DNA of 56,304 nt, counting the filler, from Sphacelaria rigidula (Eukaryota): NCBI GenBank assembly GCA_964200075.2. It is 3 parts of 3 records of this genome, joined end to end, with 100 filler letters (N's around TTAATTAATTAA, not from the genome) between each part and the next. Parts side by side here need not be neighbours in the genome. Positions count along the whole stretch, not along the records: positions 37,607 to 56,304 come from CAXNAA020000810.1; 2 more parts are not named here. One strand, 5' to 3'. Position numbers and translations under genes: made by a program. Position 1 is the first letter of the stretch; every line of letters begins with the position of its first letter. The notes under the pieces are model-generated. The model worked only from the letters and a program-made list of their open reading frames with translations, ran no database searches and was not told the DNA's origin. This document shows positions 7,501-53,814 of the stretch, one piece after another.

Positions 7501-9255
7501 GTTCAAACGCGTCAAACTCGACATGAGAGCACACGGCGCGCTTTGCTTCCACAATTTCAGCGATAACAAAAGGATAGAAAAAATGATGTGTTCGCAGTAT
7601 GAAAACGACGGAGCACACGGGGAAAAACTTCTCCGCGCTGTTCCATGCAAAGTTCTCCACAACACTGTACTGTGCCAGATGTTCGTAGACGATCCGTTGC
7701 ATTTGGCATCCGAGCGGTTAACCTGTTCATTCAACCGAAACATTCCCAATACAAAAATGAGCATGCCCAAAACAGCCACCACCATCAACAACTACTTGAA
7801 TATGTCACACAAAATATATGCTCACCTCTCCCCGCTGCTGGACACAAGGTCCGGAGGCCCGGCATCGGTCGAAATCGACGAAGACGAATTAGAAGCCGAC
7901 GACAGTGACCTTGACCCCATTGGAAACACCCCAGACTCCCCGCTGCTCGACATCAGCTCCGGAACACCGTCCGAAGATGACACTGTTCCCGAAGACGGCA
8001 TACGGGATTCGGGACGAAATACACCTGACCTGCTCATCGTCGTCGAGGCCCGTCTCCCCGCCCCCCTCCGTACTGCCCCCTCGGATATCGGGCAGGGTGG
8101 CGACATTTCCGAAGCTTGCGCCGAATCGGAGACACCGGGGGCTCTCCCACTATCCTCATCTTCCGACGACGCGGATGATGTTGATATTGCGTTGGACGTA
8201 CTGGAGGACGCTGGTAACCAGGTCGTGCTGGCCCCATCGGACGCTGACAATTCATCGCCGTCCTTAGCGCTTCGAGATACACGTGAGCTCGCGGGCGACG
8301 ATGTGGCCAAGTTTGACTCGTCGACCTCGACACTTCCAGTAGTCTGCTCAGCAGATACCACCCTGTCTGGTGCAACTGCCGTCGTGGCAGCTTCATTATC
8401 TGCTAGTGTAGTAACTGCCGGATTGGACCCTGCCGTCGCCGAGCGATGCTCAGATGCGTCTGCTGCATCAGAAACCGCGGGTGACGCTGCCGACGTTACA
8501 GTGGGCGGACCATTTTGCTCATTCCTAGTTTCTAGTCCTGACAGCAAAGTGTGCAGGGTCAGCAGGCCCTGTCGAATGTGCTCTAGGCCCAGCTGTCCCT
8601 CCTCCTCGGCTTCCCGGCCGCCGCTTCCCCTGTGAGCATGTGCGGTTGCCGCCCCGCCACCCAGTGCCCCCGCGCTAGCGTGCGCGGGCGCACCGGTGGC
8701 GGCGGCGTCTCTGCCGCCCAGAGCCCTTGCGCCTCGAGGCTCGACGGCGCCCGTCACAGAATTCTGCGGTTGGGACAGTTGTCCCGCAATCAAGTCAATT
8801 CCCCCGCCGGATCCTGCCGCCCCTCCTGCGGCGCCGCTCGCGAGGCCCAGCATGTTGGACAAGAAATTATCGCCAGTCAGATCGCCGGGGTTACCCTGAA
8901 ACTCTGAAACTCCGAGGCCGGCGGGGTTACCGGCGACACCCGCAGTCATACCGCCACCGGCACCGGTAACCCCGCCCTGTCCGAACGCAGGAACACCCAT
9001 GCCCATGCCCATCAGCACGCGCTGCCCAAGCGCACCCGCGCGTGCGCTAGCGGCGGTTGCTGCTGGTCGGTTCGCCGCTTGGTTCGCTTGGGTGTTTGCT
9101 GCCACGCCGGCCGCGGCAGAGGTTTCTGAAGAGGGTGGAACAAATCCACGAGGCCTGGCCACCATGTGGAGCGAGTGCCCAGTCTCGACCTTGTATGTGC
9201 TGAGAGATTCCGAGTCGACCAAAACCTTCCCGCGGTAGATTAGTCGCTGTCGGTC
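4519..9255 (-). CDS. Ubiquitin-like-domain, BAG6/Scythe-like protein with an internal Tudor/MBT (Royal family)-like domain; 5' exon(s) not located
   Basis: Exons 9255-7826, 7155-6932, 6463-6222 and 5739-4519 have GT-AG borders, phases 2/1/0 join in frame, total 3117 nt. Motifs: UBL C-half DRQRLIYRGKVLVDSESLSTYKVETGHSLHMVARP; RKFFVGQWLDVKDTVHNWLEATVMDISDSGTQLQIHYNGWPPRWDEWLSWDSPRIAPFRTRT; APLLDRLGRMLTDVAPHL; NINIHIHAIV. Confidence 0.8.
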
Positions 9256-9686
9256 CTGCAGGGCGAGTAGTACAGCAGGCGACATCACAACACCAACATC
9301 GACGCGTAAAAACAATCAGGTATCACGTCACTAAAGACAGAGGGCTACATGCATCTCTCCGGAGAAATCTGGTATTCTGTACATCGATATTGTATACACG
9401 GGAAAAAATAAAGGTGGCAAAACTGATTACTACCATAGAATAAAATGACAACCGAAGAAAACGACCGCCAACATCCCTTGCGCAGCCAAGGTGGTTTCCA
9501 TCTTGACATATTCGGGCATAGTTCCAAATTTCGGGTACATCTGCCGTGTGGAATCTCGCCAAGATAGTAAGTATATACCGGGGAGAGATGGGTTGATCTC
9601 TTAAGACCACGGCCTCATCCCGATGAGGGGCAGGGGTTCAAAGCGCGACAAATCAATAAAAAAATCAACAAAAATACGAAGTCTGA

Positions 9687-37960: not shown

Positions 37961-39484
37961 AGCAATATTTATTTTCCCTCAAAACTCCACTAAAAATACG
38001 AGGAAAATGAAAAAATGAAAAAATGAAAAAAAAAATGGTATAAAGCTATGCTGTTTACTCCATCATACACTAGCGGTTCTTCATACGAAATTTCATAGCG
38101 CAAGTCTCGAAAACTGAGACGCGATATCCAGACTTGGGGAATCTAGTGTCTCTTCTCGTAATATATTGATTTTAGTGTAAAAAACTATGTGCGCTTCATC
38201 TCGAGATAGATTAAGAATTTTGTGAAGGTGAGGGTATTTACGAGTATCGTCTCCCCGTGCTCCGGAGAAGGTCCACCCCTAAAATCGTCATCGTCCGCTG
38301 AATGTATCGTTCGGGGTTTCATATAGATTTTAGTATGGACGCTATCCCCGTACGGTATAGGAATTACTAGACAGGGTGTTTAATCAACGGATAAATATTG
38401 GACCAGATTGTTTAGCAGATGGGCACCTTCCCCTTGAGTGGATTTCCGGTTGGCGCAGAGCAATTTCAAACTGTTCAAAGCTGAGTTATCAAAAACCGCC
38501 CTGCTAGAACAGATTTTTTGCCGGTTTTCTTCGGGGGGGGGGGGACGCATCGACCAATCACAAGGCATGAAAACAAATGGATCTAGGGGAGGACGATTTT
38601 CCCGTCTCGAGAAGACACGCCCAAGACGCTGTCTCAAGAGTAGGTCTAAACCAATAAGGCACTCTGGGGGGACTGAGGCCAAGGGTTAGAGTTTTTGATA
38701 CTGTGCGCTTAACCGCAGCCTTTGTTCAATCACCACGTATCATTGCTGTCTTCGACTCTTTTGTGCAATTAGTAGATCATGCGGTTGTGGAACACCTGTG
38801 TGTACAACTTACATTCAGTAAGGTACATTTAGATACCACCCCCAGTACAAGGACTGAACATCAGACCTTCGAGTCTCAAGCTGTAGCAGCATCTCCAGCG
38901 GCAAGGCCTCATTCGCAATGGTTGTAACCTTGTAAATCAAATATTTTGTAAGGCGCAATTCCTGTATATCGTACTCTAGCTCGAATTCCTCCTCCATGGC
39001 TTGCCGCAAACGCTCTTCTTCTCTTACGATTACTGTAGCTAAACGCGGATGATCTCGTCCTTTGGGGTACCCTTATTCGTTTTTGGGGTACATAATTCAA
39101 AAACGCCTACTTGCACACACCGCCGGTCATGACGTGGTTCGAGTGCTGTGCGTGTGCCCCAACCAGGTGACAATCTGTACTCGCTTTTAGGGTTCAGGGT
39201 TTTGCCCAAGATAGCTTAACGCTACTTCGATACGGCAGCCTTGTTCACAGCCTAGAAAAAAAATCAACTCCAGCCATCTAATCCAGTTCAAGTCAACTGG
39301 AAAGAGGAGGAGAAGAAGCAGCAGCAGCAGCGGCCCGGTAAAAACAGCTGCCTCTTTTCAACAACGATCGAAGGCAACACGACCTGACAGTCCCGCCGTG
39401 GGCGACAACACGCTGGGGACACGACGAGCGGCTGAGCAGACGACGATTACTGTACGTACACGCTGTACTTTGGCTGTATAAAGT

Positions 39485-42400
39485 ATGTCAGGATGCAAGC
39501 AGCCCACTGCGCACCAAGGATCAGCTTCCTTTGCTCGCAGACCTAACTTAGCTGCGGCATCGACACTCGGATTGTTGGTTGTTGCGACCACCTCCGTTGA
39601 TGCGCTGTTGCCCAAGACGCCCATTGTTTCGAGAGGATGCGTGAGGCCACGGGGCTCAGCGGGAGGCATTCCGAGATCGACAAATGGGGCCACAGGGGGG
39701 GAAGCCGAAAGTGCAGATTCATCTGAAATATATGCGTCGTTGCGGAAACGATTAGAGGTGAGTTCATGGTCCATACCAACAGCCTTCACTGAGCGGCCGG
39801 CGGGTGTGTCAAGGTTCAAACTGGTGTCAGAAGCAGGGTGGATCGGGGGTCCTTAGAGCAAGTCTCAAAGGGTGGCAGGAAGGGAGGAGGGGAAGCCAGG
39901 AACGGGAGCGTGTAAGCTGCGCGTTTGTTGCAGCTGTATGCGCTGGCCTGTCGTGTGAGCATGCTTGCGCGCACGTTTTTATCGTGAGGTTGGAGATATT
40001 GACGCAGCACATATTCGATTGCAACACTCACGTTGAACATCAACATGAACCAAGTAGCCGGTAATACTGTTTTCAGTCCTATTCATACGACATCACACAA
40101 AAAAAGCATCCAGCGTGCTTGGTGTATGCGTATCACACGAAGCATGCCTTGTACTTACTTTTGTAATGTCTCTTTCACAACTGGAACACCGTCTATGTCC
40201 CATGTTCAATGACGTCTAAAGCGTGGCAAAGCGATGACACGCACAGAGGTCATGAATGATGGCGACACCGACCCTTTGCCTTCCCGTCGCGACTATCTAC
40301 TGGTCGTGGCACTACTGCCTTCGTTGTAGACAGTAGCTGTGCTGGTGAGAGACCGCTTGAGCGTTGGTAGCGGTTCCGGGCCAGCACAGACGATACGCTG
40401 TATACACAACAGTACACGGTGTAAAGAGATTTTGTTGCGGTGCCCTCGGTAGAGTGCCCCACGCATTGTGCTGGGCCCTAAAAAGGACACGTCATGAACC
40501 ACTGTGGGAAGTATCTCCACATTTCAATATGCTCGACAGTACGACTGTGAAACGCTTTCACGAACACAGGGGTTGAACCCATGAACGTCCTGCTAGATCC
40601 AATGACTAAGGCAGGGTTTTTCACGCTACGTCTGTAGTGAATTTGTGAAGCGTGTCCTTGTTATCCTCTCGTTGTCCTGTACATATGATACATGTATACA
40701 GCACAGCAGTACACACTCGGAGTAGCTTCTCCAATACGGCACATTGCGTCGAGACAAAAGTTGCGAGTAAGATCAGGTTTGGCCGAGGGGGGCTTTTTGT
40801 TTGCTTTGGCTTGTTTTGCAGTGTTTTGCACCCGCCGATCACTCCCGTATTGTTTGCCTTGCTTCGATTCTCACTGTACCGTCTTCCTCTATCTCCAGGA
40901 GCTGCGACATGCACGTCATGATGACGACGATACGCCTACGCCGTCGTCACAGCTGGAGTGGGAGCGGTTGGAGCAGCAGGAGTGGGAGCAAAGGAACACC
41001 GCAAGTTCCCCCACCCCTCAGGTGGTGTCTTACTCTGGACACGACATGAAGAAGGCCTATTACGAGGCGTTCTGGCGAGCTAGGTGCGTTTTGTTGTGTT
41101 CCCATCTTCCTGTCGTGCCCGATCCCCCTGGTGCATGACATTACTCCTTGTACACTGGCCGGTCGTGTGCCGTTCTTTCCTCTATTAACTCGGCAGGTAG
41201 CAGGATTGGGTGGCTTGCTTCACCTAACGCCTCGTACAATTCTGCCGGAGCCCGATGTTGCTTCTGCAGAATCATAGAGGACGTTTTCGTGCCGTGCGGA
41301 AACAGTCTGTACCTGTATTTTGGCAGACCGACGAAGATATTTTCCTGCGATGTTTTTACCCTTAAGTGCGCATCCTCAGCAATTCCTCTTGTATCCAGCG
41401 CCGACGCCCCCCCCCCCCCCCCCGCCTTCCTTTCCTCTCCCTCTCGCACCGCAATGAATACGACCTCCACCGGCATACGTCCACGCCACCGCCACCTCCA
41501 GGAATCTGAAAAAAGGATCCAAGACCGATGAAGCCAGCAGCAGCATCTATGATGACCCACCAACAAATCCACCCACCCCTCCCGCTACGACATCGTCGTC
41601 CTCCTCTGACGTCTCGCGCCCGGCGACAACGCTGCTCACCACAGCCGCCTTCGATATGGTCATGTCGAAGTATGAAGAGGACGTGGTGGCCGCGGCGGAG
41701 GCGGCGTCGACAGCACCAGAGAAGAAGACGGCGGAACCCGCGGTCCAAGGACTGACTCAGATGTTTTACCTAGAAGAAAAAGACGAGCAGTTGGCTCTTA
41801 CAACGGCGCTCGCCGAAGCCGGCACCGCTGGCGACGCCGCTCGGATCGGTGCCAACGCGGCAGTACGAGTTCAAGCGGCGTTGGAGCAACCGTGGCCGGT
41901 GGGACTCTCACAGATGTTTTTCGTGGAGGATGCTCATGAGGAGGCGGCGGCGGCGGCCGGCGCGCTACCCCTTGCCCCTCGGTCCTTCCTGAGGGAGCGG
42001 CTCGGTGTACCGGGGGAGATCGTGCAAGCTTTGCGCCAGGTATGTTTCGCCTGTGTATCTGCGTCATGCCACTACAGGGAGGGGGGGGTGAAATTTTGGG
42101 CCATTTCTTCCACGAAATTCCACTTCGAACCGTCGTTGAAAGCAGCAACGGTTGTTCGAACGCGCTTGTTATCGATAAATAGCGCCCATTCATACTGCTT
42201 GACATCGTTTTTGCCCAAATACGAGTACACCGCGAGTGTGCTAGGCCTTACGACACATCCATGAGCTCTTTTTGTCATGTAATCCGCCCCACCTTCCCTC
42301 TCGTAGCATGACTCGTTTTGATCCTGATGTTTGCCCTGAGTCGTTTGAGGTGTGGCGTGTGTTGCGCGTACTGTGTGACCGCCATGTTCACGAGGTGAGT

Positions 42401-44589
42401 GCATTCCAAAAGGCAGCATTCAACGTGTATATATTATGCACCTCTCCTTGTATGCGATTTGTTGAAGTGTGTGTGTGGGGAGGGGGAGGTGGACCCATGG
42501 GACAGTGAAACTCATGAGACAGTGGTCAACCCGTGGCTGTCTCTGCAAGTGGCGATACCAGAAAATGAAACAACGAAGTGTAGACTGCCACCTATATGCA
42601 AGATAATTAGTACGCTTCGGACCAAAGTATTTTAGCAGGATGCAGCTTATTCTACGTGCAACGTGCCGAACACATGACGGCGCTTCGCGCTTGGTGACTG
42701 CGAACCTGGTCCGGCGAAAACCCGGCGTGCTCTCTCCTGGCTTTGTAGGGATGCGAGGTCAACGGCCATTTAACTACGACATGCAAGATCATTAGAGCAA
42801 GTGGAGGAGGATCCCGTTGTGGGATAAGTGCTAAGGGCCGTGTTTTTCCGAGCTCTTGATGCTTTCGAAAAGACTGCCGGAAATGCGGCGGGGATTGGAA
42901 GCGGGGGTTGCCGCCGAGGATCTCAAATCGTGCTTTCGCACAGCCAGCGCGTCGCATCCGAATCCTATTTCGGATTCCCCTACCGGTTTTGTGAAACCCC
43001 TCGATGCATCGGAATAGGTTGTCCACACACACAACACTAGTGCATCGTTCAAACCATTAGTTCATCACTGGCACATCTGACTGTATTTTGTTTGCGTCGC
43101 AATGCCACCACCCCAGGTCGAGCTGGACCATGCCCGTCTCGCGATGCTGGCAGTTTTACTTACCGGCGTGGTTGGGGCTGGTGCCGGGGCAGGTGTGCCG
43201 GCGAGCGCTGAGATTTTCGACTCCAACCTCGGGCTCGCAGCGGTAAGGGATCAGCACGCTCTGCTTGTCCTTCTCGTTATTGTCGACGGATGTCTGCCTT
43301 TGGGTTGCTGTATTACAGGGTGGATATGTTTCTGCGGCCACGACCGCATCGTCATGTATACACACGGTTGTGATCTCCTTGCAAAATCGAGGGAGTAAGT
43401 CCCGTATGCCTGCCCCGACAGTACGTAATTCTGGACGAAACCGCCCGCCATGCGTCAAAATTCCCTGTCATCGCTCATCAGTTTTACCCCCTGTCGTGTT
43501 CCTTTCACAGCTGTTGTGTATTGTACCTCTGATGCGCCAGTGCCCACCCACTTTCCTTCACGACGCCTCTCTTGCCTTCTCTCCCGTCCTCATTTTATCC
43601 CTCAGCTTGCACAGGTTGCTCGAACGCCTTGGCTCGACCCGTGCGTCGCAGGCGTTATTCTGTCGGTGAAAGCCCTGTCGGAGGGTGACGGACGACTAGG
43701 CAAGGGTGCTCTGGCGGGATGGGCAGACAAGGGTCTCCGCGCGGTTTCTGATATCGGTGCCAAGGCTTTGCGCTTGAGCTCTGGCGACGAGGTACGTGAT
43801 GCGATATCAAATGCGGGAAAACTTCGTGTTCCGTGCTTTCCATTAATTTAACCTCGGTAATATCACCGCAGACAGCTCCTTGCCTTGAGGTATGCTGCTT
43901 TTTTAGCCATCATGATGTCGAGTGACTCTGGGTCGCTTGAAGCTGTGATTCTTACAATGCCCGATGTACATTGCTCGGTGCGTGTGCTGTAGTACTCAAG
44001 CATGTTGCAGTCCGCTGCTCATCCACCCGCCGGATCCGCAGATAATGCAGTCATCTTTTGTGTGTTCTCCGAACAGAGACGTAGTGACTGATACGTGCTG
44101 TTCGAAAACTTTGGGGTTGGCCTCGAGCGTTGACAACCTAATCGGCCGGCAGTACCCTACCGTCGACTCCGTAGTCCCTACACCGCGTCCGCGAACACTT
44201 CATTTGCCCTATACTTTGGCACATACTGTTAATCTTACTTCGTCATGTCGCGTTGTATGTGTCCGGACGTATTGCTGCCCGAGTAGCTGCCGCCATCTCA
44301 ACGAACTCTCTGTGCACATACGGCATAACCGGCTTTGGAAAAGGTGAAGGCGGGCTCCAGATGTACATCAACTTCGTCTTAATCGGATATCAACGAGAAC
44401 ATCGTTGACTCCCCTCCCCTCCCCTTCCCTGTGCCCGGCCCTTGTTCTCCTTTTGTTGTGGTATATCGCTTATGCCCGCCGTAGATGCGCAAGCTGGCAG
44501 TTGAGATGGAAGTGAAGCATGGCCGAATGGCTCTGGGTGCTGTCGTATGCGCGATGGCGCAACAGGGCCTCATGACCGTCGGCGCATGA
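39485..44589 (+). CDS. Divergent light-harvesting complex (LHC/FCP-like) chlorophyll-binding protein, ~470 aa, with bipartite plastid presequence and long N-terminal extension
   Basis: Exons 39485-39757, 40899-41083, 41502-42039, 43117-43242, 43606-43791 and 44485-44589; GT-AG, phases 0,2,0,0,0. Helix-1 motif LRQ|VELDHARLAMLAVLL and helix-3 motif MEVKHGRMALGAVVCAMAQQ (ExxHxR, Q at position 18). N-terminus LAAASTLGLLVVATTSVDA-LLP resembles a signal peptide with an ASAF-type cleavage site. Confidence 0.8.
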
Positions 44590-45789
44590 TCCGTCGACAC
44601 ACATCTGTAGACGAAGATTTATCCCTTCCGTCTAGACTCACCGTGTAAAAATGTCATGTATCTTGTTTCGTCTTCAATTTGTTGCGGGCGTATTCTTGGT
44701 TCGTTTGGTGTCCCTTATACTTTTTCGGTTTCTTTTTCATGTGCTTGGTACACGGAGGCGTTTTTACCGTGCTTTTGTCGAAACAGGGTCCCTACGTGTA
44801 AATAATCATTGCCAGTTGAAACGCGGGCATTTAACTCAAAACGGCAATATTTGACGCCCCCGCGTATATCTTATGCAGAAGAGTTGTTTTTATTTGCGCA
44901 ATCGTAGGTGAAGCAGTACTGCATCCCGCGGCGTTTGGATGGAACGGGGGCAGATTTACGTGTCGCTGCTGCATCTTATCGAGCAGTGTCCAGTACGACT
45001 TATTTGATTTGATTCGATTTCATGATTAATTGATTTACTGTCGCACATCAACTGATCCCCGAAGAATCCAACGGTGGTCCAAAGTATTTCGACAGGCTTC
45101 CCTATGTCAGTTGAGAACCTCGGGGTGATATTCATCCGTCCGCCGTCAGCAACATGCACGGGAACGGCCCTTGGCAAAAAACCTTGAAAATTTGATGACA
45201 CTCTGAAAATTGTTCGAGTTGGGTGGGGTACTCATGATGGAACCACATATGCGACTGGACGCGCTTTCGGATGGATTCTCCGTGCCAACATTCTGAAATA
45301 CTTGGTATTCTGTATTTTATTCTGTGTCTTGCGACGTGTCGCGGTGCCGGATTGACCAGTCACTCTTCTGACGTCATTATTCTTGGAGGGGAGCGAGGGG
45401 GCATGCCAAGTGTACGCGGTATGCCCACGAATACTCCCCGCGTCGTCGATATATGCAACGTCCCGAACCCCTAAGTGAGATCAGGGGAGACGAAAGTGCT
45501 GCGGCGCGTGGACACACGGGCAAAGAAGACAAACTTCAAAGTTTTGGAACGCTGTTGTAAACCACTGGTTCCTGCAAATGCAATGCAAGAGGGAAGCGAA
45601 TGCGAGCACGCAATCGTAGTCACCCGGTGCATGTGCTGTAGTAGCATACCTGTATGCAAATCGATTCCACCCATATATTATCGTCTCCTGTCGTGTTTTT
45701 CTGCATAGAGATGTGGGCGGGACGGGGCGGGTTGTCAGCTTACGCCGCTTGCATTCATGTGCCGCAATTTCTTTCATCATGGTGTGTGA

Positions 45790-52348: not shown

Positions 52349-53213
52349 ATGTCGATCCGGCTGAGGCAGCTAATCCGGCAGGTGCGGGCGTGCAAGACTG
52401 CGGCGGAGGAACGAGCCGTCATAGCTAAAGAGGGCGCCCTGATTCGCACGTCCTTCAAGGAGGGCAATGACTCGTGTAGGGCACGGAATATTGCCAAACT
52501 ACTCTACATGCACATGCTGGGTGAGTAGGCAAGGAGGCGGGGCGAGGAAGGGGCAGGTGGGGGCGTCAATTTTCGTTTCGAAGCGGGAGATTGACTTGTA
52601 CGATAGCAAAGTCTGGAGATTTTCAAGTGCCCTCATCAGCCTACGAGCAGCGTGCTCGTTACGAGTCCCCTGCTGCCCTCGGTTGTCTCTTGTAGCTGCG
52701 ATAATCATTTGGGCGACGGGGTGTGTCGTATGTCCACATGTCCGGGCCTCTTGCACCCGCGGAAACGAGGTGCAGTTGGGCATTGGCTAGTACGCTTCCT
52801 CGGCGGCAGGTGCATCCTTTTTTGTTTGTTACAATTTGACACACCCTGGACAATATTTGGTCAATAGATGCAATGGACCAAAAGTGAACTGGGTAAAGTA
52901 TATACCTGTTGCTACTACTGTCGGTCAATAGCTGCAATAGGCCTGTACTTTACCCAGTACATTTTTGTCTGTTGCATCTATTGACCATATATTTTCCGGG
53001 ATGTGCAATTTACAACGATATATCGTGATTCACTGTTGTGACGTTTTGGTTACTGCTGATATTTGTTTCTTCCCCGCGCGGGGGCGGGGGGGAGCAGGGT
53101 ATCCATCCCACTTCGGACAGATGGAGTGCATCAAGCTTATCGCCAGTCCGAGCTTTCCCGACAAGAGGGTGGGATATCTAGCTCTCATGTTACTTTTGCA
53201 GGAGAAGGATGAG
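52349..53213 (+). CDS. AP1G1: AP-1 adaptor complex gamma subunit (gamma-adaptin), first two coding exons; no further exon identified in the window
   Basis: Exon 52349-52520 [57 protein letters not shown] plus exon 53098-53213 [39 protein letters not shown]. This is the characteristic gamma-adaptin N-terminus; the phase-1 GT-AG junction is consistent. Confidence 0.93.
52833..53011. mobile_element. Hairpin MITE-like element in intron 1 of gamma-adaptin
   Basis: tggtcaatagatgcaa...actgggtaaagta pairs with tactttacccagt...ttgcatctattgacca. Confidence 0.8.
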
Positions 53214-53814
53214 GTGAGTGCATCCAAGATTATCATCTTGTTGTTTTCAGTTTTGATTGGGACCAGTGATTGCAAACGTGTTTCCTAGTGGGCGGCGCTT
53301 CATTTCGGGCCCTGGGGTAGTGGAAGGGAGCAGCATTTGATTGTGTGCTCAGGAGCGAGCGACCTGAGCGAACACGGGCATTGGCCAGGAAGAGGTACAT
53401 GTACCTTTTACGAAGTGCTTTTCATTTCACGTTTGTTTGATTGTTTTAGGGGCATACAACGTTCGGCGATACTCTTTTTTTAATTTTGTAGGGCGCAATA
53501 AGATGCGGCTTTGACTCGATGTTGCGTTGTTACTTCTCTGCGCCGAGTAGAAGCAGCGCTGCTTGCTTTGCTGCTTCCTTTGTTTTACACATGCAACGCG
53601 GAAAAAGTGACATGAAACCAAGAGGAGTGGTGCTCAACCACGCCTTGGAGGTCTCGGGTGCTCCATGAGAACACACCCAGCTGTCCTGCACCCCAGAGCG
53701 GTCCGGAAGGTGAGATTTGTTCGTCTCTCCTTTCCTCAGGCGTCAGTAAAATTACTGTTCATCATGTTGCCGATTCTTGCTCCACACCTTCCAGAGATGA
53801 GGGAGTGCGTTAGA

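Follow-up and report, generated by a model that had tools for sequence, protein, structure and literature searches.

A six-exon gene and its transcripts

We analysed a stretch of 56,304 nt (the window; G+C 50.6%, 206 N) from the genome of the brown alga Sphacelaria rigidula, in which a gene on the + strand at 39485-44589 had been predicted, from the sequence alone, to encode an oversized protein of the light-harvesting complex (LHC) family with a long N-terminal extension. We found that this is one six-exon nuclear gene which is transcribed and spliced, and that its product, by sequence comparison, belongs to a conserved, uncharacterised protein family with members across the brown algae. We regard its identity and architecture, those of a long-armed LHC-like protein, as highly probable. 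The joined coding sequence of 1413 nt comprises 470 codons and a stop, and the translation of the six exons is identical, letter for letter, to the 470-amino-acid (aa) protein P0007 (NCBI CAM9195783.1), whose public label is 'unnamed protein product [Sphacelaria rigidula]'. The five introns (1141, 418, 1077, 363 and 693 nt, in this order) all have GT..AG ends. Six in-phase exons giving ∼470 aa had been proposed; the length proved right, but the exons are not all phase 0, as the codon for R153 is split across the exon 2/3 junction with the frame kept.

Transcript data came from four runs (X1-X4) of one study, typed 'RNA?' by guess, whose contigs were placed on 39300-44900. Because these contigs carry the spliced form and the depth in introns is near zero, the four runs were treated as RNA. 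The features of the gene are as follows:

39300..39484, + strand: 5′ untranslated region (UTR; at least this far); contigs of the RNA-like runs are gapless over 39300-39755, and X4 record 15 extends 108 letters further upstream
39479-39481, + strand: in-frame TAA just 5′ of the ATG
39485..39757, + strand: exon 1, aa 1-91; signal-peptide-like aa 1-40 (h-region 22-38, ...SVDA↓L), transit-like aa 41-72 (Ser/Arg/Pro/Gly-rich) and the start of module A at aa 73-91, SSEIYASLRKRLE
40899..41083, + strand: exon 2, aa 92-152 and 2 nt of R153; the remainder of module A, then an acidic, variable linker, then module B (aa 136-157), YSGHDMKKAYYEAFWRARNLKK
41502..42039, + strand: exon 3, third nt of R153 and aa 154-332; low-complexity acidic arm, two motif copies and a conserved pre-helix segment, RSFLRERLGVPGEIVQALRQ
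43117..43242, + strand: exon 4, aa 333-374; LHC helix 1, VELDHARLAMLAV (E334, H337, R339; 43120-43158), which ends like a Gly/Ala zipper, then the beginning of the lumenal loop
43606..43791, + strand: exon 5, aa 375-436; LHC helix 2 at aa ∼383-401 (43630-43686), with the invariant E400-G-D at its end, followed by an amphipathic helix at aa ∼403-430 and a loop before helix 3
44485..44589, + strand: exon 6, aa 437-470 and TGA; LHC helix 3, EMEVKHGRMALGAVVCAMAQQG (E445, H448, R450, Q462; 44497-44571)
44590..44900, + strand: 3′ UTR (at least this far); X4 record 15 and X1-X3 records 5, 10 and 14 cover 44483-44900, and the contig continues for 792 letters

All five predicted introns were skipped, with GT..AG ends, by contigs of all four runs at a word depth of 304-448 (contig depth in these runs cannot rank expression), and the intron bins had depths mostly of 0-36, except for a repeat in intron 3. 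The 2809-nt contig X4 record 15 leads from the 5′ UTR through exons 1, 2, 3, 5 and 6 to the 3′ UTR; its positions 1286-1414 are exon 4, and both exon-4 junctions were listed for X4 at equal depth. In X1-X3, contigs of ∼1620 nt ran across exons 1-5 and reached 30 nt into exon 6.

Could two neighbouring genes have been fused by annotation, exons 1-3 coming from a soluble protein and exons 4-6 from a small LHC-like protein? At 1077 nt, intron 3 is long, it contains an element that is highly repeated or expressed, and the N-terminal part is without a Pfam family, all of which would suit such an artefact. However, the junction across this intron (42035->43113, GT..AG) was present in one contig of each of the four runs, at a depth equal to that of the remaining junctions, and X4 record 15 spans exon 1 to exon 6 and the 3′ UTR. 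Moreover, the same architecture was found in two proteins of a close relative that are encoded on intron-free contigs (P0008, 442 aa, 2308 nt; P0023, 465 aa, 2389 nt) and in 14 named species. The junctions and the 2809-nt contig therefore refute a fusion: the splicing in transcripts by which the original prediction was to be checked was seen for every intron, and the two halves belong to one gene.

The LHC domain and the N-terminal arm

The whole protein matched the hidden Markov model of Pfam family PF00504 (Chloroa_b-bind) with 35.8 bits (E 1.4e-8; cut-off 22.3), residues 324-463 aligning with profile positions 24-161 of 162. Exons 4 and 6 taken singly scored 16.6 and 17.3 bits, below the cut-off, and the orthologues scored 30.6-39.9 bits (three at 30.6-37.1; P0020 of Choristocarpus 39.9). 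The two chlorophyll-ligand motifs, ELDHARLAM from residue 334 and EVKHGRMAL from residue 445, the latter followed by Q462 at +17, both lie within the last 137 aa. Thus the PF00504 match that had been suggested as a check was obtained, and the motifs stand where they had been placed, in the C-terminal ∼140 aa.

To compare individual residues we aligned the C-terminal parts of 10 family members with 6 conventional LHC units cut from the polyproteins P0124, P0126, P0128 and P0085, which had been hits of the profile search. E334, H337 and R339 fell on the ExxHGR motif of helix 1, E400 on the conserved Glu at the end of helix 2, E445, H448 and R450 on the helix-3 motif, and Q462 on the Gln 17 residues past the helix-3 Glu. 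We take these residues to occupy the positions of the core-chlorophyll ligands and the two Glu-Arg locks between helices 1 and 3 known from LHCII and FCP structures. The helix-1 motif and the EGD of helix 2 were present in 17/17 brown-algal sequences and the helix-3 motif with Q(+17) in 15/17; the two misses were P0019, apparently with a mis-modelled last exon, and P0026, a partial model that breaks off ahead of helix 3. In addition, the Choristocarpus orthologue P0020 was collinear over the whole domain with the solved chains 9ygv_7 (FCP7), 9jj8_F, 9uh3_T (FCPI-5) and 8z11_F (iFCPI-8), with E values of 2e-4 to 2e-3. Among 13 orthologues the column identity of the domain was 0.82, rising to 0.98 over residues 331-345. 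By these comparisons the C-terminal ∼140 aa are a divergent LHC domain (PF00504), with three predicted helices, which has kept the residues equivalent to the ligand and lock positions of conventional LHCs.

At the end of helix 1 (residues 346-360 of P0007, 43156-43200) we also observed a conserved Gly/Ala stretch, GVVGAGAGAGV, in which G349 and G352-G356 are conserved at at least 90%. The stretch is found in most brown-algal orthologues, and Choristocarpus and Discosporangium have other residues there.

The available text on the antenna families describes a carotenoid-binding motif X[F/Y]DP[F/L]G (G..DFG in Lhcf), located before helix 1 and in the loop between helices 2 and 3, as well as an N-terminal S.[S/A][L/M]P in Lhcr and a C-terminal PGSVP in Lhcq (10.1101/2021.09.06.459020, seen in part). 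DP[FLA]G, [FY]DP[FL]G, G..DFG, S.[SA][LM]P and PGSVP were absent from all 14 family members examined; the conventional LHC units compared alongside carry [FW]DP[LV]G. In the alignment, SDIGAKALRL occupies the place of GDLGFDPLRL of the conventional units; therefore the loop looks homologous, with the motif lost. The protein ends 8 residues past Q462, with no lumenal helix or tail. Judged by its sequence, the domain is thus without the DPxG carotenoid-contact motifs, without the lumenal part after helix 3 and without any of the subfamily markers tested, and the absent DPLG-type motif and the early stop behind helix 3 that had been noticed in the Sphacelaria gene proved to be real features.

The N-terminal part begins with a signal-peptide-like segment (residues 1-40; hydrophobic stretch 20-43) that ends in ...SVDA↓L, the orthologues having SVQA↓F or SVxA↓L at this place. 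This junction fits the ASAFAP type that the accessible text of PMC3750529 gives as typical of bipartite plastid presequences, so far as the residues can tell. Behind it lies an arm of ∼260 aa that is mostly low-complexity. Residues 61-320 contain 16% A, 10% E, 9.6% S, 8.1% T and 6.9% P, with 41 acidic against 25 basic residues, and residues 73-320 have a net charge of -17. The region had been described as acidic and S/T/P-rich: it is acidic, but the second term covers only part of the picture.

A Pfam scan of the arm returned no family. The arm contains conserved blocks. In the 13 orthologues, module A (73-98, SSE[LI]Y..[LM]R.RLEEL) had a column identity of 0.74 and module B (136-157, MK..YY.AFWRA.NL) one of 0.88, with M141, K142, Y145, Y146, A148, F149, W150, A152, N154 and L155 invariant. 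Further along, the motif [VQ]G[LM][TS]QM[FY][FY][LV]E[ED] occurs twice, at aa 234-245 (41743-41778) and aa 286-296 (41899-41931), with identities of 0.80 and 0.68; both copies were present in 17/17 brown-algal sequences. The segment before helix 1 (313-332) again reached 0.88, compared with 0.45-0.48 for the linkers. The nearly invariant S79 and S80, in their acidic context, could be phosphorylation sites, which is speculation.

Relatives, known families and genomic surroundings

As the original prediction had asked, we searched for orthologues in other brown algae, and a word-based search found them in Laminaria digitata, Ectocarpus fasciculatus, Ectocarpus sp. 6, sp. 8 and sp. 12, E. siliculosus, Pylaiella littoralis, Scytosiphon promiscuus, Ascophyllum nodosum, Choristocarpus tenellus, Cladosiphon okamuranus, Nemacystus decipiens and Discosporangium mesarthrocarpum (a partial model), the architecture being found in 14 named brown-algal species. 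A precomputed PF00504 match exists for 13 of the 14 listed proteins. The exception is the E. siliculosus model P0019 (CBN75747.1 / D8LGH2, 'expressed unknown protein'), whose C-terminus after ...LGSGNE continues as CLGVVCEAVSWCGVYSLVAEL in place of the helix-3 exon seen in all other orthologues. Its last exon looks mis-modelled, to judge from this comparison, which may be the reason why it stayed an 'expressed unknown protein'. Among the proteins listed, each named species was represented by one orthologue, a pattern that suits a specialised gene of low copy number better than an antenna family with many genes.

NCBI taxonomy files Choristocarpus and Discosporangium under Sphacelariales; we assume, following published phylogenies, that they are the earliest-branching brown algae. 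The presence of members in both therefore suggests that the family predates the brown-algal radiation. Beyond the named species, a profile of the 13 orthologues gave 114 matches at E <= 0.001 among 1.84 billion representative proteins, and most of the fragments examined were single brown-algal exons read on into introns. Two environmental proteins, P0122 (383 aa, JGI/IMG) and P0127 (352 aa, ENA), were full-length-like and share modules A and B (hhalign probability 96.6, E 6e-10, and 97.3, E 1.6e-11, respectively) as well as PF00504 (25.5 and 28.0 bits). They read EVKHMRVA or ELKHSRVA in helix 1 and E-A-N..W..G[RK] in helix 2, and P0122 has EVGHGRLA in helix 3. As both the modules and the LHC domain are shared, the architecture exists beyond the sampled brown algae. 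When P0127 was used as a query for homologues it returned itself alone, and searches of metagenome contigs with the family alignment and with P0122 confirmed no relative. Leads from the ESM Atlas at 0.83-0.85, below the bar of 0.9, were ELIP-like clusters (0.85) and a Bacillariophyta cluster of 377-aa PF00504 'hypothetical proteins' (0.84), both unconfirmed; an NCBIfam scan gave nothing relevant.

For comparison with solved proteins, the family profile was run against 177,635 distinct PDB sequences, of which the best 60 of 259 rows were considered, and P0020 likewise (best 60 of 221). The best solved chain by the profile was 8z11_F, iFCPI-8, at 26.2 bits (E 3.4e-5). The next matches were spread over cryptophyte CAC2/ACPI, CP29 (helix 3), FCP7 and FCPII-J, all at <=26 bits. 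The accessible text for this entry assigns iFCPI-8 to the Lhcq type and iFCPI-1 to the RedCAP type (PMC11648859). No RedCAP, FCPI-1 or iFCPI-1 chain was among these best 60 rows of either comparison, and ELIP, SEP/LIL3 and OHP gave no sequence match and were likewise absent from both sets of 60 rows.

We did not find the family described in the literature, searched in full text; supplementary tables, which were not opened, might list the gene (e.g. the Ectocarpus CBP list of PMC3008699 and Table S1 of PMC3020630). The parts available of PMC3750529, PMC3008699, PMC3020630, PMC13250310, PMC3592843, PMC11648859, 10.1101/2024.02.19.579948, 10.1101/2021.09.06.459020 and 10.64898/2026.08.10.743057 give no account of it, and CBN75747 / D8LGH2 is named in no searchable paper. 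Thus the idea that no described subfamily has such an extension agrees with the PDB comparison, where no match at subfamily level appeared among the 177,635 sequences, and with the literature found. On the evidence of its residues and scores the domain belongs to the LHC superfamily and lacks the tested subfamily markers.

With the conventional FCPs (Lhcf/Lhcr/Lhcq/Lhcx/Lhcz) the family shares a predicted three-helix domain with ExxHxR in helix 1, the Glu ending helix 2 and ExxHGR...Q(+17) in helix 3, a collinear alignment over the full domain and a presequence that looks bipartite. In contrast to these proteins of ∼200 aa, the protein has 470 aa and a conserved N-terminal arm of ∼260 aa, has nothing past helix 3 and none of [FY]DP[FL]G, G..DFG, S.[SA][LM]P and PGSVP (0/14), reaches at most 26.2 bits with any solved LHC by the family profile and apparently exists in one copy per species.

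Among LHC-like proteins, ELIP, LIL3/SEP and OHP1/OHP2 resemble the family in their divergent chlorophyll a/b-binding (CAB) motifs, the missing DPLG, little or nothing past the last helix and an apparently low copy number. In LIL3 and OHP2, parts outside the membrane bind enzymes or assembly factors, and these two proteins are, by analogy, the nearest counterparts for the mode of action of the long-armed protein. ELIPs differ by their short N-terminus and by their description from the green lineage. According to the text available of PMC3020630 and PMC13250310, SEP/LIL3 carry a single CAB motif on two helices and OHPs consist of one helix, whereas the family combines two CAB motifs with three predicted helices, and its arm is far longer. 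As far as such analogies go, its architecture would be closest to the three-helix ELIPs and its logic closest to LIL3 or OHP2.

CP29 (Lhcb4) is an LHC in which an extended stromal N-terminus mediates contacts, and its helix 3 was among the PDB matches; however, it belongs to the green lineage, its N-terminus has ∼100 aa of unrelated sequence, and it keeps the antenna motifs and the lumenal helix. RedCAP, like the family, is a three-helix LHC-superfamily protein of brown algae; it is plastid-targeted and lies outside the main FCP clades (PMC3750529, available part). It differs in that iFCPI-1 was not in the best 60 of 259 rows whereas the Lhcq-type iFCPI-8 of the same entry was the best match. 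Furthermore, the Ectocarpus RedCAP is a different gene model, Esi0256_0036, and the same part of that paper describes no long conserved arm for RedCAP.

Elsewhere in the window, a Pfam scan of 81 open reading frames (ORFs) of >=110 aa gave three matches and no second LHC gene:

7825-9315, - strand: ubiquitin-family match, 36.1 bits
24381-24773, - strand: weak TAZ zinc-finger match, 22.3 bits, below the cut-off
52941-53285, + strand: match to the adaptin N-terminal region, 36.2 bits, just below the cut-off

These neighbours are unrelated to photosynthesis, and the eukaryotic context says nothing about function.

Within intron 3, the summed contig word depth in the four RNA-like runs was ∼12,000-79,000 over 42479-42852 and 1,400-2,800 over 42105-42291, as compared to 300-450 in the exons. 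The depth came from hundreds of contigs, mostly 95-99% alike (335/431 in X1), with many loose ends at 42665-42697, which points to an element that is highly repeated and/or highly expressed. Rfam gave no match to it at E <= 0.1, ARAGORN none, and Pfam nothing above noise on 8 intronic ORFs; a 25-base piece of it occurs once in the window. One contig each of X1 and X3 carried a joint 41430 -> 42707 (depth 10-14) that skips 1276 nt, has TT..CC ends and 4 extra letters, and connects the poly-C/CT-rich end of intron 2 with the intron-3 repeat; it is probably a repeat-driven assembly chimera. In intron 2, a run of ∼16 C lies in a CT-rich stretch (41403-41425) at which a number of contigs stop or diverge; their loose ends lie at 41397-41423.

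Possible role in the plastid

What might such a protein do? We propose that it serves as a helper or scaffold in pigment delivery, assembly or photoprotection, a role that is argued by analogy and is tentative, with odds somewhat below even. To the explanation as a whole, which blends identity and architecture with the helper function, we assign a probability of about 0.6. The putative bipartite presequence would import the protein into the plastid, and it would be inserted in the thylakoid with the topology of an LHC; from that topology and the presequence, the arm would face the stroma. The LHC domain would bind a small core set of pigments, chlorophyll a and carotenoid, and the conserved blocks of the otherwise flexible acidic arm would dock one or more stromal or membrane-surface partners. 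The protein would then act in the manner of the LIL3, OHP2 or ELIP helpers, assisting pigment delivery, assembly or photoprotection instead of serving as bulk antenna. The missing antenna motifs and the analogy suggest that it may be a helper rather than an antenna.

Several observations weigh against this proposal, and the first group concerns the fold. Helix 2, LDPCVAGVILSVKAL, is weakly hydrophobic (Kyte-Doolittle 1.63 over 15 aa and <1.2 in all 19-aa windows). It aligns with helix 2 of the conventional LHC units, including the conserved Glu, and likewise with that of iFCPI-8, so the three-span topology is suggested by homology and is not secure. AlphaFold2 gave a mean pLDDT (predicted local distance difference test) of 48.6 with the full alignment (13 sequences) and of 49.3 with the shorter orthologue P0016 (16 sequences), and the packing was without confidence. 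The low-confidence model has helices at 324-353, 386-399, 403-430 and 434-462; the highest local confidence lay in the arm, in helices 79-98, 106-125 and 138-158 (blocks of 74-87, with 87 for block 79-98). Foldseek with these low-pLDDT models found no match in the PDB at E <= 0.001, and a wide VIA-align search returned generic helical-hairpin matches alone (Z <= 8.2), so that the LHC fold was not recovered from the poor models.

The second group concerns antenna function. The retention of all core chlorophyll-ligand positions fits an antenna role equally well, and CP29, a true antenna, binds the photosystem core by a long N-terminus. The Lhcq-type iFCPI-8, also a true antenna, touches the core of photosystem I (PSI) by a long N-terminal loop, as the accessible text of PMC11648859 describes. 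The protein could accordingly be an antenna of the ordinary kind in a minor position, as a peripheral or linker FCP within a photosystem supercomplex, whose arm spans the stromal surface to the core or to neighbouring antennae; the best solved matches are indeed PSI antenna chains (iFCPI-8 at 26.2 bits, FCP7, FCPI-5 and 9jj8_F). We consider this alternative unlikely, although it has to be taken seriously. No solved chain exceeds 26.2 bits in the 177,635 PDB sequences, hence the protein is unresolved in any supercomplex there, both carotenoid-contact DPxG motifs and the lumenal C-terminal part are gone, the arm of ∼260 aa far exceeds known antenna loops, and one orthologue per species was found among the proteins listed.

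At the other extreme, the LHC domain might no longer bind pigment and be only an anchor, the function lying wholly in the arm, e.g. in tethering a stromal complex to the thylakoids. The loss of the carotenoid-contact motifs, the weak hydrophobicity of helix 2 and the low PF00504 similarity (35.8 bits) are in line with this, as is the arm with its family-specific blocks, of which modules A and B are the part common to P0122 and P0127. However, conservation along the protein is strongest in the LHC domain (0.82, and 0.98 over 331-345), and it is precisely the ligand and lock residues that show little or no variation, which is unexpected for a mere anchor; we therefore judge this reading to be very unlikely. 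Beside the helper, antenna and anchor readings, a share of the probability goes to explanations of some other kind.

The helper role that we prefer can also be framed more specifically: the family may be an undescribed extended-LHC subfamily in which a three-helix pigment-binding anchor carries a stromal arm that brings an enzyme of chlorophyll or carotenoid biosynthesis, or an assembly factor of the photosystems, to the thylakoid. In this narrow form the proposal is speculative and rather doubtful. If true, the protein would be a red-lineage counterpart of LIL3 or of OHP2/HCF244-type systems, built on a full three-helix LHC and present throughout brown algae, with the N-terminal module in other marine algae as well (P0122, P0127).

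Brown algae are major coastal primary producers whose antenna proteins are sorted in existing catalogues into Lhcf/Lhcr/Lhcq/Lhcx/Lhcz and RedCAP. LHC-like proteins that carry extra parts have emerged as key factors of pigment delivery and assembly in plants and cyanobacteria; to our knowledge, red-lineage plastids lack several such helpers. What is new here is, as far as sequence comparison tells, an uncharacterised branch of the LHC superfamily that occurs across brown algae and whose conserved N-terminal arm is novel, and a conserved PF00504 protein that is still 'unnamed' or an 'expressed unknown protein' in public records. Were it merely a minor antenna subunit, it would be a modest addition to the FCP catalogue. 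As a helper, it would be a candidate for pigment delivery, assembly or photoprotection in chlorophyll a/c plastids, one that is genetically testable in Ectocarpus.

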